Virus record (IMG/VR): IMGVR_UViG_2778261172_000005
Coordinates: 1-36,440 of that record
DNA length: 36,440 nt
Reading direction: 5' to 3' (one strand)
From: a virus
Taxonomy: Duplodnaviria; Heunggongvirae; Uroviricota; Caudoviricetes
Under the pieces are notes generated by a model. That model was not told the DNA's origin. It ran no database searches and saw only the letters and a program-made list of their open reading frames with translations. Below, one piece after another: positions 1 to 36,440 of this stretch. The translations under genes were made by a program, and so were the position numbers. Position 1 is the first letter of the stretch; each line of letters begins with the position of its first letter.

Positions 1-1362
1 ATGTTTAAACCGGAACTCCTTTCCCCGGCGGGAACGCTGAAAAATATGCGTTACGCTTTCGCTTATGGCGCAGATGCTGTTTATGCGGGCCAGCCGCGTT
101 ATTCCCTGCGTGTGCGCAACAACGAATTCAACCACGAAAATCTTCAGCTCGGCATCAATGAAGCCCACGCGCTGGGGAAAAAGTTTTATGTCGTGGTCAA
201 CATTGCACCGCACAACGCCAAGCTGAAAACCTTTATCCGTGACCTGAAACCGGTGGTGGAAATGGGGCCGGATGCGCTGATTATGTCCGATCCAGGGCTG
301 ATTATGCTGGTGCGTGAGCACTTCCCTGAAATGCCGATCCACCTTTCGGTGCAGGCTAACGCCGTGAACTGGGCGACGGTGAAATTCTGGCAGCAAATGG
401 GCCTGACCCGCGTGATCCTCTCTCGCGAGCTGTCGCTGGAAGAGATTGAAGAGATCCGCAATCAGGTGCCGGATATGGAGATCGAGATCTTCGTTCACGG
501 CGCGCTGTGCATGGCCTACTCCGGTCGCTGCCTGCTCTCTGGCTATATCAACAAGCGCGACCCGAACCAGGGCACCTGCACCAACGCCTGCCGCTGGGAG
601 TACAACGTCCAGGAAGGGAAAGAAGATGACGTTGGCAACATCGTACACAAGTACGAACCGATTCCGGTGCAAAATGTTGAGCCGACGCTGGGTATCGGCG
701 CGCCAACCGACAAAGTGTTTATGATCGAAGAAGCCCAGCGTCCGGGCGAGTATATGACCGCGTTTGAAGATGAGCACGGCACTTACATCATGAACTCGAA
801 AGATCTGCGCGCTATCGCCCATGTTGAACGCCTGACCAAAATGGGCGTGCATTCGCTGAAAATCGAAGGCCGTACCAAATCTTTCTACTATTGCGCACGC
901 ACCGCACAGGTTTATCGCAAAGCTATTGATGACGCCGCTGCGGGCAAACCGTTTGACACCAGCCTGCTGGAAACCCTTGAAGGCCTGGCGCATCGTGGCT
1001 ATACCGAAGGTTTCCTGCGTCGTCATACTCACGACGATTATCAGAACTACGAATACGGTTATTCAGTTTCTGACCGCCAGCAGTTTGTTGGTGAGTTTAC
1101 CGGTGAGCGCAAGGGGGACCTCGCGGCGGTAGCGGTGAAAAATAAATTCTCCGTTGGCGACAGCCTTGAGCTGATGACGCCGCAAGGCAACATTAATTTT
1201 ACCCTTGAGCACATGGAAAACGCCAAAGGTGAAGCTATGCCGGTCGCACCAGGCGATGGTTATACTGTGTGGCTCCCGGTCCCGCAGGATCTTGAGCTCA
1301 ATTACGCGCTGCTGATGCGTAATTTCTCCGGGGAAACCACGCGTAATCCCCACGGTAAGTGA
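1..1362 (+). CDS. yegQ: U32-family peptidase YegQ (host gene flanking the prophage)
   Basis: 453-aa ORF whose translation I recognise as E. coli YegQ; the window begins at its start codon; GC-rich host-like composition. Confidence 0.85.
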   Translation: MFKPELLSPAGTLKNMRYAFAYGADAVYAGQPRYSLRVRNNEFNHENLQLGINEAHALGKKFYVVVNIAPHNAKLKTFIRDLKPVVEMGPDALIMSDPGLIMLVREHFPEMPIHLSVQANAVNWATVKFWQQMGLTRVILSRELSLEEIEEIRNQVPDMEIEIFVHGALCMAYSGRCLLSGYINKRDPNQGTCTNACRWEYNVQEGKEDDVGNIVHKYEPIPVQNVEPTLGIGAPTDKVFMIEEAQRPGEYMTAFEDEHGTYIMNSKDLRAIAHVERLTKMGVHSLKIEGRTKSFYYCARTAQVYRKAIDDAAAGKPFDTSLLETLEGLAHRGYTEGFLRRHTHDDYQNYEYGYSVSDRQQFVGEFTGERKGDLAAVAVKNKFSVGDSLELMTPQGNINFTLEHMENAKGEAMPVAPGDGYTVWLPVPQDLELNYALLMRNFSGETTRNPHGK

Positions 1363-1391: not shown

Positions 1392-1446
1392 AATTCTTAG
1401 AAACCGATCACATACAGCTGCATTTATTAAGGTTATCATCCGTTTC
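1392..1446 (+). promoter_or_regulatory. putative CRP-dependent cyaR promoter (CRP half-site GATCACA about 42 bp upstream of the sRNA 5' end; -10-like TATCAT at about 1434..1439)
   Basis: TCACA half-site at about 1408..1412 with weaker upstream half; TATCAT 8-13 bp before 1447; CyaR is known to be CRP-activated. Confidence 0.4.
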
Positions 1447-1533
1447 GCTGAAAAACATAACCCATAAAATGCTAGCTGTACCAGGAACCACCTCCTTAGC
1501 CTGTGTAATCTCCCTTACACGGGCTTATTTTTT
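1447..1533 (+). ncRNA. cyaR: CyaR (RyeE) Hfq-dependent sRNA, 87 nt, ending in a hairpin plus U-tract
   Basis: Sequence GCTGAAAAACATAACCC...CACCTCCTTAGCCTGTGTAATCTCCCTTACACGGGCTTATTTTTT matches my recollection of E. coli CyaR; lies between yegQ and ogr as in K-12; the terminator hairpin overlaps the att core. Confidence 0.75.
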
Positions 1534-1534
1534 A
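1507..1534. repeat. prophage attachment site core, ogr-proximal copy (attR), AATCTCCCTTACACGGGCTTATTTTTTA
   Basis: Exact 28-bp direct repeat of 35938..35965; contains the reverse complement of the 27-bp P2 att core as I recall it; it forms the 3' end of cyaR. Confidence 0.85.
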
Positions 1535-1596
1535 CGCGTAATACAGTGAAATAAAAGGATTTATTTCTGGTCACGTCCACACATTGACCACATCGA

Positions 1597-1622
1597 CAAA
1601 AAAGCCCCTCGACTGAGGGGCT
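1597..1622 (-). terminator. rho-independent terminator downstream of ogr
   Basis: Inverted repeat AGCCCCTC/GAGGGGCT with 4-nt loop, followed on the minus strand by a T-tract (plus-strand CAAAAAA). Confidence 0.5.
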
Positions 1623-1634
1623 TCCTGTTTGTAA

Positions 1635-3098: not shown

Positions 3099-3577
3099 TA
3101 TCCCGCCCCCGTCATACCCGTGAATTTAGTCGCCATACTGCCAGCCTTACCGATGAGCGATTCCGCCTGTTTACCTATATCGCCATAAAGCGCGGCCAGT
3201 GATTCATCAACGCGGGTAAGTGACAGCGTAAAATCAATTTTCCGGGGTGTGCCGTCTGCAAAGAAAATACTCCCTGTTTCACTCACCCTGCTGATGACAT
3301 ACATGCCGTAAATCATGCCGGTGCCATCCAGCAACGGCCACGCCCGGCCTTCCTCTGCCATCAGCCTGAGCGTGGTCATCGTCAGCTTGCCGCCGGTCAG
3401 TTCTGGATAAAGCACACCGGCAAGCGTGATGTTTTCCTCACCCACACCGAGAAACTGAAAGGCATCCCGTTTACCGATACGGGAATTTGACGGCCAGCGA
3501 TAATCTGATTCACGCTGCATGGTCTGGTGTGGCAGCGTCTGGCGCATAAAAACAAACATACCTAACGCGAGCATCAT
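3098..3577 (-). CDS. U: tail protein U (P2 gpU-like)
   Basis: 159-aa ORF immediately upstream of D; start overlaps D; synteny and sequence recognition. Confidence 0.85.
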   Translation of the reverse strand: MMLALGMFVFMRQTLPHQTMQRESDYRWPSNSRIGKRDAFQFLGVGEENITLAGVLYPELTGGKLTMTTLRLMAEEGRAWPLLDGTGMIYGMYVISRVSETGSIFFADGTPRKIDFTLSLTRVDESLAALYGDIGKQAESLIGKAGSMATKFTGMTGAG

Positions 3578-11673: not shown

Positions 11674-13992
11674 TTATACCTGCGCTACGTTATACCATGT
11701 CCCGTTAATGTATTTCTGCACCGGTCTGTAATATATGCCACCAATGTTATCGGCAGAGTTTGAGCCGGTATCCTGAACAATAATGCCGGAATATACACAC
11801 CCGGACGGTGCCTGATGTGTCCATGTCATGCCATTGTTCGCAGGTTTGTATGTGGCAGCACCACCAAGCCGGATATCCCGGACATAGCGTGAATCAAAGT
11901 TGCCATAGTTAGATGGTGATACCTGCCCGTTAACAGCAAAAGTGATGCTGTTATCTGTATTTCTCTGACTGTAAAAATGCCAGCCTGCATCATCACCTAA
12001 TTCAGCCACCACCGGACGACTTGAGTTTCCCCACAAATTGAATGCGGCTTCCTTCGTGGATGTATTACTGCTGCTGACCGTGAATTTTTTCCCGCTACCG
12101 GCACGTACTTTGGTACTTGAGACAATATCACCAGTAACATTCAGGCCATGCCCCATTGATACAGCACCAGTGGCATCATTTATAATCAGCGGTCTTAAAT
12201 TATTATAAGTGCCTAATCTGTCACCTGATTTAGTCAACATAAAATAAGTGCTGCTGCCATCATTCCTGATAAAGAAACCATAATTGCCATAAGCAATGCG
12301 CAGACCATTAGCACTGAGTGATGTAATCTCACCTCTTGAACGGAGACCATAAGCGGAGCTGAGTGATAATTCTTCCTGAGCATCAGTATTACCAGTCGCC
12401 CAACGAACTACCCCGCCCTGTACTGTTTCATGCCAGATAGTGTCTCCTTCTCCACCACGAAACTTTCTGAGATATTTTTTGCCGCCTCTTGTGCCTGAAC
12501 ATAAGGCCGTAGACATATAGGCATTCTGGCTTCCACCGTCCTGATTAATCGTTCCGGTCATTGCGTCGCCCTGACGATTCCAGTCACGACGCCAGCCGGG
12601 GGAGTAGCCGTCCCCATGATTAATGTAAGTGAATTGTGCGCTGGTTGTACCGCCACCGCTTGATGTTGTCGGCGTGGTCACTCGGATAGTGATTGCAGAT
12701 TTAGTTCCCATGACCTCGACGACACAACCAGCCAGGTGGATATCACCACATCCGGTATCCGTAATGATTTTGTTATTTGCATATGACCAGGAGCCTTTGC
12801 ACATCCAGTACGGATGATTAAATGCACCACGGGAATCCAGCCATTCAATAAACTGAGCGGTTGTCCAGTTTCCGGCTTCAGTGCTCAAAGCGCCGCTATA
12901 AGCACGACAGGCACCGATATTTTTCGTGAAGGTATCCTTTCCCGGAATATCCGCACCATTCTGATCTTTCTGAAGACGTTTTTCAGCATTGTCATAGGCA
13001 GACTTCACCGCTTTTGATGTTGCGGCCAGCGTTTCAGAATCACTGTTGGTGGCGCTACTGAGCTGGACAAGCCCTTTTCGCGCCGTGGTGGCATCCTGTG
13101 CAGTGTATTTCCCGTTAGCAAGGTCATACGCAGCCTTTACCGCCTTTGGCGTTGCCGCAAGCGTTTCAGCCGTGCTGTTAGTGGCACTACTGAGCTGGAC
13201 AAGGCCTTTTCGCGCTATGGTGGCGTCCTGTGCGGTATATTTCCCGTTAGCAAGGTCATACGCGGCCTTTACCGCTTTCGGCGTTGCGGCTAGCGTTTCA
13301 GACGTGCTGTTGGTCACACTACTGAGCTGAACAAGGCCTTTTCGCGCCGTGGTGGCATCCTGCGCAGTATATTTCCCGTTAGCAAGGTCATAGGCGGCCT
13401 TTACCGCTTTCGGCGTTGCGGCCAGTGTTTCAGACGTGCTGTTGGTCGCACTGCTTAACTGAGTAAAACCTTTTGCGGTCAGCGAGGCGTCCGGGTGACG
13501 TCGTGACTGTTCGTGCTCTGCAATTTTGTCATCAACGTAATCCTGCGTTGCCATCACCGTTGTGGTGTCAATGGTCAGCTCCACTGAGGCCACACTGCTG
13601 ACGATGATGACCATGCGGCAGGTCTGCGAACGCCCTGAGCCTTCGGCAAGAGCTGGCTTATAACTTTCGGCCATGTTCGCCACGGCAATTAACGTTCCCG
13701 CATCATCGTACAGGCCAAGCTCACGCATCCAGAAACCGCCCACCTCCGGCGGAATAACCAGCTCTGCGATAATATAATTACTGTTTCGTTTGTCCTGACT
13801 GATTTTGTTCAGCGCATGTCGCCAGACTTCGTGGATAAGCCCGGTCTGTCCGGCATCCGGGACAGGCAATTTACCACCGCCATCCCCGACGGCCATCGTG
13901 GTAATGTTGACCTTCCGCCCTTCCGGCGCGGTTGCCGCTGCCAGCTTTGCTGCACCGGCAGTGGTGATAACGGTTCTGAATTTTGTGCTCAT
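11674..13992 (-). CDS. H: tail fibre protein (P2 gpH-like) with four internal 44-aa tandem repeats
   Basis: 772-aa ORF; repeated unit KGLVQLSSATNSTSETLAATPKAVKAAYDLANGKYTAQDATTAR; position between I and G. Confidence 0.85.
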   Translation of the reverse strand: MSTKFRTVITTAGAAKLAAATAPEGRKVNITTMAVGDGGGKLPVPDAGQTGLIHEVWRHALNKISQDKRNSNYIIAELVIPPEVGGFWMRELGLYDDAGTLIAVANMAESYKPALAEGSGRSQTCRMVIIVSSVASVELTIDTTTVMATQDYVDDKIAEHEQSRRHPDASLTAKGFTQLSSATNSTSETLAATPKAVKAAYDLANGKYTAQDATTARKGLVQLSSVTNSTSETLAATPKAVKAAYDLANGKYTAQDATIARKGLVQLSSATNSTAETLAATPKAVKAAYDLANGKYTAQDATTARKGLVQLSSATNSDSETLAATSKAVKSAYDNAEKRLQKDQNGADIPGKDTFTKNIGACRAYSGALSTEAGNWTTAQFIEWLDSRGAFNHPYWMCKGSWSYANNKIITDTGCGDIHLAGCVVEVMGTKSAITIRVTTPTTSSGGGTTSAQFTYINHGDGYSPGWRRDWNRQGDAMTGTINQDGGSQNAYMSTALCSGTRGGKKYLRKFRGGEGDTIWHETVQGGVVRWATGNTDAQEELSLSSAYGLRSRGEITSLSANGLRIAYGNYGFFIRNDGSSTYFMLTKSGDRLGTYNNLRPLIINDATGAVSMGHGLNVTGDIVSSTKVRAGSGKKFTVSSSNTSTKEAAFNLWGNSSRPVVAELGDDAGWHFYSQRNTDNSITFAVNGQVSPSNYGNFDSRYVRDIRLGGAATYKPANNGMTWTHQAPSGCVYSGIIVQDTGSNSADNIGGIYYRPVQKYINGTWYNVAQV
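12990..13490. repeat. tandem array of about 3.8 copies of a 132-bp unit inside gene H
   Basis: Units begin at about 13031, 13163, 13295 and 13427, with partial copies at both ends; copies differ at a few positions. Confidence 0.8.
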
Positions 13993-34844: not shown

Positions 34845-35858
34845 ATGGCAATCAAAAAACTCGATGATGGTCGATATGAAGTGGACATCCGCCCTACTGG
34901 ACGTAACGGAAAACGCATCCGTAGGAAGTTTGATAAGAAAAGCGAAGCTGTCGCTTTCGAAAAATACACGTTGTACAACCACCACAATAAAGAATGGCTA
35001 TCAAAACCAACAGACAAACGACGTCTGTCGGAACTGACACAGATCTGGTGGGATTTAAAGGGTAAACACGAAGAGCATGGGAAATCTAATCTTGGAAAAA
35101 TTGAAATCTTCACAAAAATAACGAATGACCCATGCGCATTTCAAATCACGAAATCCCTTATCAGCCAGTACTGCGCCACCCGAAGAAGTCAGGGTATTAA
35201 ACCTTCGAGTATCAATCGTGATTTAACATGTATTAGCGGCATGTTTACAGCCCTGATTGAAGCGGAGTTATTCTTTGGTGAGCACCCTATCAGAGGGACA
35301 AAGAGGCTTAAGGAGGAAAAACCAGAAACAGGCTATCTCACACAGGAAGAAATTGCCTTACTGCTTGCAGCACTTGACGGCGACAATAAAAAGATTGCGA
35401 TTCTTTGCCTGAGTACAGGAGCACGTTGGGGAGAAGCAGCTCGTTTGAAAGCAGAAAATATCATCCATAACCGCGTCACGTTTGTTAAAACGAAAACAAA
35501 CAAACCACGCACCGTCCCGATCTCAGAGGCTGTTGCCAAAATGATCGCGGATAACAAACGAGGTTTTTTATTCCCTGATGCTGATTACCCTCGCTTCAGA
35601 CGAACAATGAAAGCAATAAAACCGGATTTGCCAATGGGGCAAGCCACACATGCACTAAGGCACAGCTTTGCCACTCATTTCATGATTAATGGAGGAAGTA
35701 TTATCACGCTACAACGGATACTAGGTCACACGCGGATTGAACAAACTATGGTTTACGCTCATTTTGCGCCAGAGTACCTTCAGGACGCCATTTCTCTTAA
35801 TCCGCTAAGAGGTGGTACTGAGGCCGAGAGTGTCCACACAGTGTCCACAGTAGAGTAA
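34845..35858 (+). CDS. int: tyrosine integrase (P2 Int-like)
   Basis: 337-aa ORF with C-terminal catalytic motifs (...HALRHSFATHF...LGH...VYAH); directly adjacent to attL. Confidence 0.9.
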   Translation: MAIKKLDDGRYEVDIRPTGRNGKRIRRKFDKKSEAVAFEKYTLYNHHNKEWLSKPTDKRRLSELTQIWWDLKGKHEEHGKSNLGKIEIFTKITNDPCAFQITKSLISQYCATRRSQGIKPSSINRDLTCISGMFTALIEAELFFGEHPIRGTKRLKEEKPETGYLTQEEIALLLAALDGDNKKIAILCLSTGARWGEAARLKAENIIHNRVTFVKTKTNKPRTVPISEAVAKMIADNKRGFLFPDADYPRFRRTMKAIKPDLPMGQATHALRHSFATHFMINGGSIITLQRILGHTRIEQTMVYAHFAPEYLQDAISLNPLRGGTEAESVHTVSTVE

Positions 35859-35937
35859 CGTTTAAGGGCTTTCAGTGGTAATTTATGCCGCTCAAACCCG
35901 CATTGTACCGTTGAAAGCCCCTACTGGTGACACCCTA

Positions 35938-35965
35938 AATCTCCCTTACACGGGCTTATTTTTTA
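35938..35965. repeat. prophage attachment site core, int-proximal copy (attL)
   Basis: Identical 28-bp direct repeat of 1507..1534, located 80 bp after the int stop. Confidence 0.85.
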
Positions 35966-36122
35966 TGCATAAGCCCTATCCCTGGTCACCGTCTTCCATT
36001 GACCACATCGATAGAATCTCCCTTCATAGCACGATGCCTTTCACGTAACGGCATCGTGCTCGCACAGGTTCCGGCTAAGCACAACCAGAACGCGCATGTT
36101 TGACGCTTACCAAAAAATATTC

Positions 36123-36440
36123 TCACTCTCCACATTTGAATGTCAGACGAGCGACGCCATGTAATCCTGCACCTTCTGTCTTCAGGTCAACTATCTGCAT
36201 TTTTTTGCCCTGAGTAACACAGAAATGGGCTGCATCATTTTTTACTATATTTTCTGCACCAGATATTCTGCCCCTGGCTAAAGAAGCTTCGGCTTCGGTG
36301 TAGTATTGGTTATCGAGTTTACGCTGAATATTACTTTTATATGCAAGACCAAATTTACCGATACTTGTCTCATCATTATGCACAGCACAACCAGACATAA
36401 TAAAAATACTAATTAATGATATAGCAGCTATCTTTTTCAT
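36123..36440 (-). CDS. yegR: small lipoprotein (host gene; probably YegR)
   Basis: 105-aa ORF with lipoprotein signal peptide MKKIAAISLISIFIMSGC; its start codon is the last three bases of the window; identification as yegR is from recalled K-12 gene order. Confidence 0.6.
   Translation of the reverse strand: MKKIAAISLISIFIMSGCAVHNDETSIGKFGLAYKSNIQRKLDNQYYTEAEASLARGRISGAENIVKNDAAHFCVTQGKKMQIVDLKTEGAGLHGVARLTFKCGE

Follow-up and report, generated by a model that had tools for sequence, protein, structure and literature searches.

Why should bacterial DNA resemble the attachment arm of the phage that is integrated next to it? This question is raised by a 36,440-nt stretch of DNA (IMG/VR record IMGVR_UViG_2778261172_000005; hereafter the window), in which a P2-type prophage is inserted at the 3' end of the CyaR small RNA gene. 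An initial annotation of the sequence noticed phage-arm-like DNA, a partial copy of the att core, and a long hairpin on the host side of attL, and proposed that they are the trace of an earlier P2-like element. We find that the stretch is best classed among the prophage fossils, or att scars, that mark hot spots of integration in sRNA genes. The flank that carries it is a very old scar common to almost all E. coli and not the mark of a recent infection of the source strain. The best reading is that a fossil P2-type element was fixed before E. coli diversified. No description of a species-wide, two-ended fossil that includes yegR was found in the literature searched, the older literature being outside its reach.

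The attachment site in CyaR and the resident prophage

The terminator of CyaR is the P2 attachment core (Table 1). This site is locI, the classical P2 site. The core at 1507-1533 is the same as the attP core annotated in P2 (AF063097). The cyaR RNA is known as the P2 integration site from Wphi2 in strain W, ogr-D' in K-12, and P2*B in strain B, with no element in Crooks (PMC3032704). In the window, the two junctions (1507-1541 and 35938-35972) are 94% identical and are reported as direct repeat D13. The copy at 35938-35964 is not a CyaR gene, since the covariance model matches 1445-1530 alone and leaves 35900-36200 empty at E <= 1.

In the GenBank record of P2 (AF063097), the ogr side of attP is called the P arm. 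The IHF footprint lies beside the core and is followed by the Int footprint, GGTCACGTCCACACATTGACCACATCGA, and then by the ogr terminator. In the prophage of the window, ogr adjoins the left junction. The arm sites of P2-type phages are direct repeats with the consensus tgTGGaCa (PMC3448106). On the minus strand of the prophage P arm, the Int repeats read TGTGGACG and TGTGGTCA. The int-side arm of the prophage is identical to that of P2.

Some minor features of this region were also observed. An 8-bp inverted repeat, GGGCTTAT (35952-35959) and ATAAGCCC (35969-35976), spans the T-run of the core. The core edge is palindromic in both copies (35952-35976 and 1528-1541). It reads TTACGCGTAA on the prophage side and TTATGCATAA on the side of the host flank, and the two palindromes are two symmetric changes apart. 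Inside the prophage, positions 12985-13492 contain three tandem 132-nt repeats, which are 81-85% identical to the reference copy. The gene that carries them is probably of the tail-fibre type and has no relation to the att finding.

Table 1. Features at the two junctions of the prophage and in the adjacent flank (window coordinates)
Feature	Position	Strand	Description and basis
yegQ	1-1362		upstream of the CyaR sRNA gene
CyaR (RyeE) sRNA gene	1445..1530	+	full-length match to Rfam RF00112 at 100.7 bits (gathering score 47)
att core copy, ogr-side junction (attR)	1507..1533		AATCTCCCTTACACGGGCTTATTTTTT, 27 bp; direct repeat D13
IHF region of prophage P arm	about 1532-1565		P2 AF063097 features
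ogr-side (P) arm of resident prophage	1534..1596		mapped from protein_bind features of P2 AF063097
Int arm footprint of prophage P arm	1569-1596		repeats CGTCCACA (1574-1581) and TGACCACA (1585-1592)
ogr / F-operon rho-independent terminator of prophage	1601..1624	-	P2 annotation; fold -19.8 kcal/mol, z = -4.4
int	34845-35858		ORF of the P2-type prophage
Int arm repeats of int-side (P') arm	35831..35849		TGTCCACA twice; sequence and P2 annotation "Int P' arm"
att core copy, int-side junction (attL)	35938..35964		displaced CyaR 3' end; D13 repeat
"Host" DNA between attL core and yegR	35965-36122		
Probable fossil ogr-side (P) arm	35965..36014		35/50 positions identical to P2-type arms, collinear with core
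10-mer	36015..36024		AATCTCCCTT, identical to first 10 nt of core; status uncertain
Hairpin	36028..36060		62 nt past the yegR stop codon; perfect 11-bp stem and 11-nt loop
yegR	36123..36440	-	small lipoprotein gene (PF27694); ORF, annotation, and homologue distribution

The arm-like flank beside attL

The initial annotation was right that arm-like sequence continues beyond the attL core. Positions 1567-1597 align with 35982-36011 (CTGGTCA-CGTCCACACATTGACCACATCGA against CTGGTCACCGTCTTC-CATTGACCACATCGA), where the flank reads CTGGTCAC...CATTGACCACATCGA. The local score of this match is 38, against 14.1 +/- 2.2 in dinucleotide shuffles, and none of 2000 shuffles reaches 38. Among tiles of real sequence, taken as a second null, only one in 1287 scores as high. 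A direct-repeat search independently reports the same pair of arms (D6; 71% over 49 nt, ungapped). Both junctions align from the core outward with one 16-nt gap before the arm match, and the matched segment coincides exactly with the Int arm footprint given for P2 in AF063097. A chance resemblance, for which nothing speaks except the short length of the match, has a negligible probability. It is ruled out by the shuffle and tile nulls together with the placement of the match, whose order, orientation, and distance from the core are those of attP.

The flank at 35965-36014 probably stems from an ancient P2-type integrative element, as what is left of its ogr-side (P) arm after decay. It directly adjoins the 27-bp core in the P2 orientation, the alignment being collinear from core to arm. 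In this arm, ATGCATAA precedes a 16-nt gap at the position of the IHF site. This gap falls inside the IHF footprint annotated in P2 and removes most of the IHF region, so that the arm is left without an IHF site. The counterpart of the Int footprint is found at 35984-36011. Within it, the Int repeat TGACCACA is intact at 36000-36007 (TGTGGTCA on the other strand), and the second repeat has decayed to CGTCTTCC (35990-35997), which keeps 5 of 8 positions.

Compared with the P arm of P2 attP (AF063097, NC_001895), the fossil has the same order and orientation to the core, the same residue at 35 of 50 positions, and one intact Int repeat. It differs in having a gap in place of the IHF site and a second repeat reduced to 5/8. 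Neither an ogr terminator nor an ogr gene follows it, and it is chromosomal and fixed in E. coli. The stretch is laid out like the P arm of P2 attP, from which it derives. A working arm, however, requires two direct Int arm-type repeats (consensus tgTGGaCa), of which a single intact copy is left, and an IHF site between them and the core. Because it retains one Int repeat and has lost the IHF site, the arm is probably inert today. It is quite unlikely that P2 Int still binds the surviving repeat and that this modulates integration or excision, which would partly explain the frequent use of the cyaR site, with the perfect attB and yegR both coming from the ancient P2-type element.

The arm motif ..GTCCACACATTGACCACATCGA.. 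/ ..ATGTCCACACATTGACCACATCGA.. is also present in cyaR-adjacent P2-like prophages of Citrobacter and of an unclassified Enterobacteriaceae bacterium. P2-like prophages beside cyaR in Enterobacter and Salmonella carry close variants of the GTCCACACATTGACCACATCGA motif. Since it occurs in P2-like prophages of several genera, the motif belongs to the phage family, which argues for a transfer that would have run from phage to host. In the reverse direction, P2 would have captured its arm from the E. coli chromosome by aberrant excision, and the host flank would be the original. The fact that CTGGTCAC is common only to E. coli P2-type arms and the flank, and is not seen in the Citrobacter or Enterobacter arms, is consistent with such a capture. 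However, the Int repeats are conserved in phages of genera whose chromosomes lack the flank. It is also the host copy that is degenerate, with one decayed repeat and the gap in the IHF site. Moreover, Escherichia sp. E1V33 and other genera have no flank, and remains of an int-side arm and core are found at the far end of the E. coli island, as described below. Capture from the host is thus very improbable, and phage-to-host transfer is favoured.

Among phage genomes, the flank and hairpin matched two records only, ON470606 and AY639599, each with host DNA included. ON470606.1 (32006-32649) and AY639599.1 (2-319) are filed as phage and contain the chromosomal flank and yegR. The layout of AY639599 is like that of the ogr-D' remnant of K-12.

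The flank was also said to contain a third partial att core. The 10-bp copy itself is present, at 36015-36024, which is 2 nt off the reported 36013..36022. Its identity as an att core was not established, as it is a polymorphic 10-mer with no significant extension. Taken alone, its significance is weak to moderate: an equal local score is obtained in 22 of 2000 shuffles, and any 10-mer shared with the core is found in 1 of 612 real 110-nt tiles. The match covers 10 nt and not most of the 27 bp, and similarity to the core does not extend significantly past it (76/2000 shuffles). Three alleles exist (AATC, then TC, CT, or CC, then CCTT). Exact matches to the TC allele with its context number 2581 genomes, and those to the CT allele 1858. 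Layered relics may be imagined here, in which two integrations, one after the other, and a later deletion would have left a decayed second core and the beginning of a further arm at 36015-36049, and the 10-mer would be a genuine third core. The complete 10/10 match to the core start is rare in real sequence, a weak gapped extension is seen (..CACG..GC..TTT.ACG.TAA), and K-12 shows that deletions ending inside the core occur. These points are weighed against the lack of significance of the extension and against the TC, CT, and CC alleles, by which the ancestral match may have been 9/10. Such layering is possible but doubtful, and the 10-mer as a putative third att core is weakly supported. A decayed ogr terminator was another candidate for the 10-mer. 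MAFFT pairs the two, but column identity is about 4/13 and 6/18, and this candidate was rejected.

Distribution of the flank and the two ends of the cyaR-yegS island

The 505-nt flank was found in 5418 of 5426 complete E. coli genomes, with a coverage of at least 80% in 5398 (99.5%). A junction query detected the unoccupied configuration, in which the cyaR core is joined straight to the flank, in 4208 genomes. By subtraction, about 1200 of the 5426 are occupied. In strain THO-010, whose site is unoccupied, the flank directly follows cyaR and the core and does not differ from that of the window. No island-free cyaR-yegS junction exists among the 5426 genomes. NZ_CP068155.1 (E. coli FDAARGOS_1077; H40, H127) is the sole genome with cyaR and the yegS-proximal flank within about 680 nt. 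An internal deletion in this genome took yegR and left the arm-like flank and the hairpin.

These counts decide whether the relic was formed recently at the strain level, by an earlier P2-like prophage of the source strain or by a K-12-type ogrK/yegZ remnant that left an arm fragment. K-12 indeed carries a P2 remnant at the cyaR locus. The order in K-12-type genomes is cyaR, core, near-P2 arm, ogrK, D', and a deletion junction inside the core (immediately before ACACGGGCTTATTTTTTT), followed by the same flank. Since K-12 has the flank beyond its ogrK-D' remnant, the remnant is an extra, younger layer. A strain-level origin is extremely unlikely and is ruled out by the ubiquity of the flank, its identical presence at unoccupied sites, and this layering, with a deletion junction inside the core between remnant and flank.

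The cryptic P2 remnant of K-12 (ogrK - yegZ/D') and the fossil are alike in locus, in core, and in being prophages cut down by deletion. The remnant is the younger of the two and strain-limited, its arm is nearly identical to that of P2, and it sits between cyaR and the fossil flank. In contrast, the fossil is older and species-wide, is about 70% identical to the P2 arms, and contains no phage gene. The comparison with K-12 made in the initial annotation consequently does not hold, as K-12 carries the flank beyond a separate and younger remnant. Moreover, the same sequence stands at unoccupied attB sites in the 4208 genomes, so the proposal as it was worded would fail. What survives of it is that the DNA is derived from a phage arm; an earlier lysogeny of the source strain does not. 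A deeper, ancient version of the relic is rescued by E1V33 and most other Enterobacterales, which have no island, and by the decayed arm and core at the far end of the E. coli island.

A scan for the conserved CyaR motif covered at least 120 species loci of Enterobacterales. Among the matches listed, the start of yegS lies within about 300 nt of cyaR in 69 of 120 loci. In Escherichia sp. E1V33, the core is followed by GCCTCACGACTTTCATCCTGTTCTGAC.. and then by yegS, with no island. In E. coli, roughly 0.8 kb, including yegR, separates the core from the homologous ..CCTCCGACTTTCATCCTGTTCTGAC.. sequence. Relative to E1V33, E. coli is thus longer by about 0.8 kb at a known att site. E1V33 is the only close Escherichia outgroup with the empty ancestral arrangement among the matches listed, in a sample that did not include E. 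fergusonii and E. marmotae.

The island runs past the end of the window to just upstream of yegS. Its far end, which lies outside the window (L002, about 3255-3332), aligns with the int-side arm and core of P2 (CCATTGCAAGCTCCTGGTGGTAAC-CACTGAATCCTCCATACTTGAACTGACTTTTTAT against CCGTTGAAAGCCCCTACTGGTGACACCCTAAATCTCCCTTACACGGGCTTATTTTTTAT). The distal core is identical to the P2 core at 18 of 27 positions. The similarity to P2 ends with the T-run, and from there on the sequence agrees with the flank of E1V33. With soft scoring, the arm and core together reach a local score of 50 against 22.9 +/- 4.5, and this score is reached by none of 2000 shuffles and by two of the 1287 real tiles. Under stringent scoring, the number of shuffles at or above the observed score is 7 of 2000. 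Remains of a distal core and of the other phage arm are both present at the far end; the arm taken alone gives a modest signal, which 25 of the 1287 real tiles equal.

One end of the island is thus attR-like, with cyaR, the core, and a fragment of the P arm, and the other is attL-like, with a fragment of the P' arm, the decayed core, and the ancestral flank. Judged from these sequences, this is the signature of a putative P2-type element that has lost its interior. Since att-like sequence is found at both ends, the element would have been integrated and then internally deleted. The contents of the island count against the fossil-element reading, as no phage gene is left in it and YegR is absent from true phages. 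The island contains no recognisable phage gene, only yegR and, in some strains, a fragment of a second lipoprotein gene. In a blastn comparison of the island with the prophage, the best hit beyond the two att-junction matches had E = 0.65.

The sole intact gene of the island, yegR, is hardly known outside E. coli and Shigella. Elsewhere, homologues with 47-81% identity are found at unrelated chromosomal loci; a second lipoprotein gene comes after those with 76-81% identity. No YegR homologue was found in true phage genomes. A phage moron was rejected as an explanation of yegR on the basis of this absence and of the unrelated chromosomal loci of its homologues. The gene is either cargo of the old element or a separate arrival. 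A protein 88% identical to YegR (P0016) was rejected as a sister-species orthologue because its contig is a frameshift-ridden, E. coli-like assembly. Some E. coli (L003 2684-2853, JCM 20135; H20-H28) have an extra 170 nt straight after the yegR stop codon. This piece is homologous to the 5' part of the second lipoprotein gene (L131 6322-6654) and is lost in the window at about 36120.

The following history would account for the locus. In an ancestor of all E. coli, Int would have recombined a P2-type element into the 3' end of cyaR. Deletions would then have stripped all phage genes, leaving an island of roughly 0.8 kb between cyaR and yegS, in the order core, P-arm fragment, hairpin region, yegR, AT-rich region, int-side arm fragment, and decayed second core. 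The cyaR-proximal core is perfect, and the distal core is down to 18/27; selection on the proximal copy as the CyaR terminator would most likely have kept it. Because the perfect 27-bp core is the P2 attB, the site has been re-used repeatedly, as seen in the ogrK-D' remnant of K-12 and in the complete P2-type prophage of the window. In the window, the attL core of the new prophage abuts the fossil P arm.

No new mechanism is involved in this history. It corrects the reading of the junction, as the DNA between the attL core and yegS is a species-wide phage fossil and not native host sequence. Prophage-boundary calls and the annotation of "host flank" at the cyaR site should allow for the fossil. 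It would also offer a concrete origin for the orphan lipoprotein gene yegR. A single sRNA terminator has been re-used as a phage landing pad in layers, namely the fossil, the K-12 remnant, and intact prophages. The arm-type sites left beside attB are a natural test case for the influence of such sites on tyrosine-recombinase reactions.

The hairpin and related islands beside cyaR

The inverted repeat with an 11-bp stem at 36028..36060, also pointed out in the initial annotation, is real. Its arms, AGCACGATGCC (36028-36038) and GGCATCGTGCT (36050-36060), form a perfect stem with an 11-nt loop. The minimum free energy is -21.3 kcal/mol on the plus strand and -24.6 on the minus strand (z = -5.1 and -5.8), and none of 200 shuffles is as stable. 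The hairpin has no T-run on either strand, a terminator scan returned 0 terminator-like sites, and no Rfam match was obtained even at E <= 1. An intrinsic terminator and a known RNA were therefore both rejected. K-12 retains the stem, and JCM 20135 and CE0007a each lack one of its pairs. No compensatory stem change was seen, but the changes are few and give no evidence either way. No counterpart of the hairpin was found in phages. The hairpin is not an att component; most plausibly, it is a stem-loop at the 3' end of the yegR transcript or was left over from the old element.

A selected host function might also explain why these sequences persist. The retained Int repeat would recruit or titrate P2 Int at locI, or the hairpin would serve as a 3' end, a barrier, or a regulatory element for yegR or for read-through from cyaR. 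The invariance of CATTGACCACATCGATAG across ten aligned E. coli flanks, the high stability of the hairpin, and the retention of most of the 11-bp stem while the loop varies would fit such a role. However, the flank is about as polymorphic as the neighbouring non-coding DNA, and the IHF site is gone. The stem changes are uncompensated, and the hairpin has neither a T-run nor an Rfam family. We consider a selected function unlikely and retain the reading of the flank as a decayed phage scar.

Decayed att scars are familiar from other hot spots of integration; the phage remnants at ssrA and at tRNA genes are examples. The cyaR scar is like those at tRNA and sRNA genes in that the proximal repeat is preserved as the 3' end of the functional RNA, the distal one decays, and cargo genes stay. 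Unlike them, it retains recognisable arm-type sites of the recombinase and not the core repeat alone, and it is now the bacterial flank of an occupied att site.

Remnants of the ogr-side arm without ogr were also observed beside cyaR, followed by islands, in Salmonella diarizonae (L101), Citrobacter sp. Awk 4 (L033), Kluyvera sp. (L027), and E. albertii (L108). The S. diarizonae island is roughly 2.9 kb long and has an SseK2-like gene (sseK2-like). The Citrobacter island is 2.7 kb long, with a relic of an int-side arm upstream of yegS. In E. albertii, the truncated arm is followed by IS fragments and then by cdtA. It looks as if P2-type elements have landed at the 3' end of cyaR time and again and have left cargo there.

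The CyaR terminator itself was compared among these loci (window 1493-1524; L054, L108, L027, L037, L045). Its 5' half in E. coli is GCCTGTGT, as in Escherichia sp. E1V33 and E. albertii. The 3' half, ACACGGGC, is the same as in the P2 core. It perfectly complements only the Kluyvera-type 5' half, GCCCGTGT, and E1V33 and E. albertii have ACGCAGGC in its place. In E. coli, this 3' half of the CyaR terminator may be of phage origin as well.
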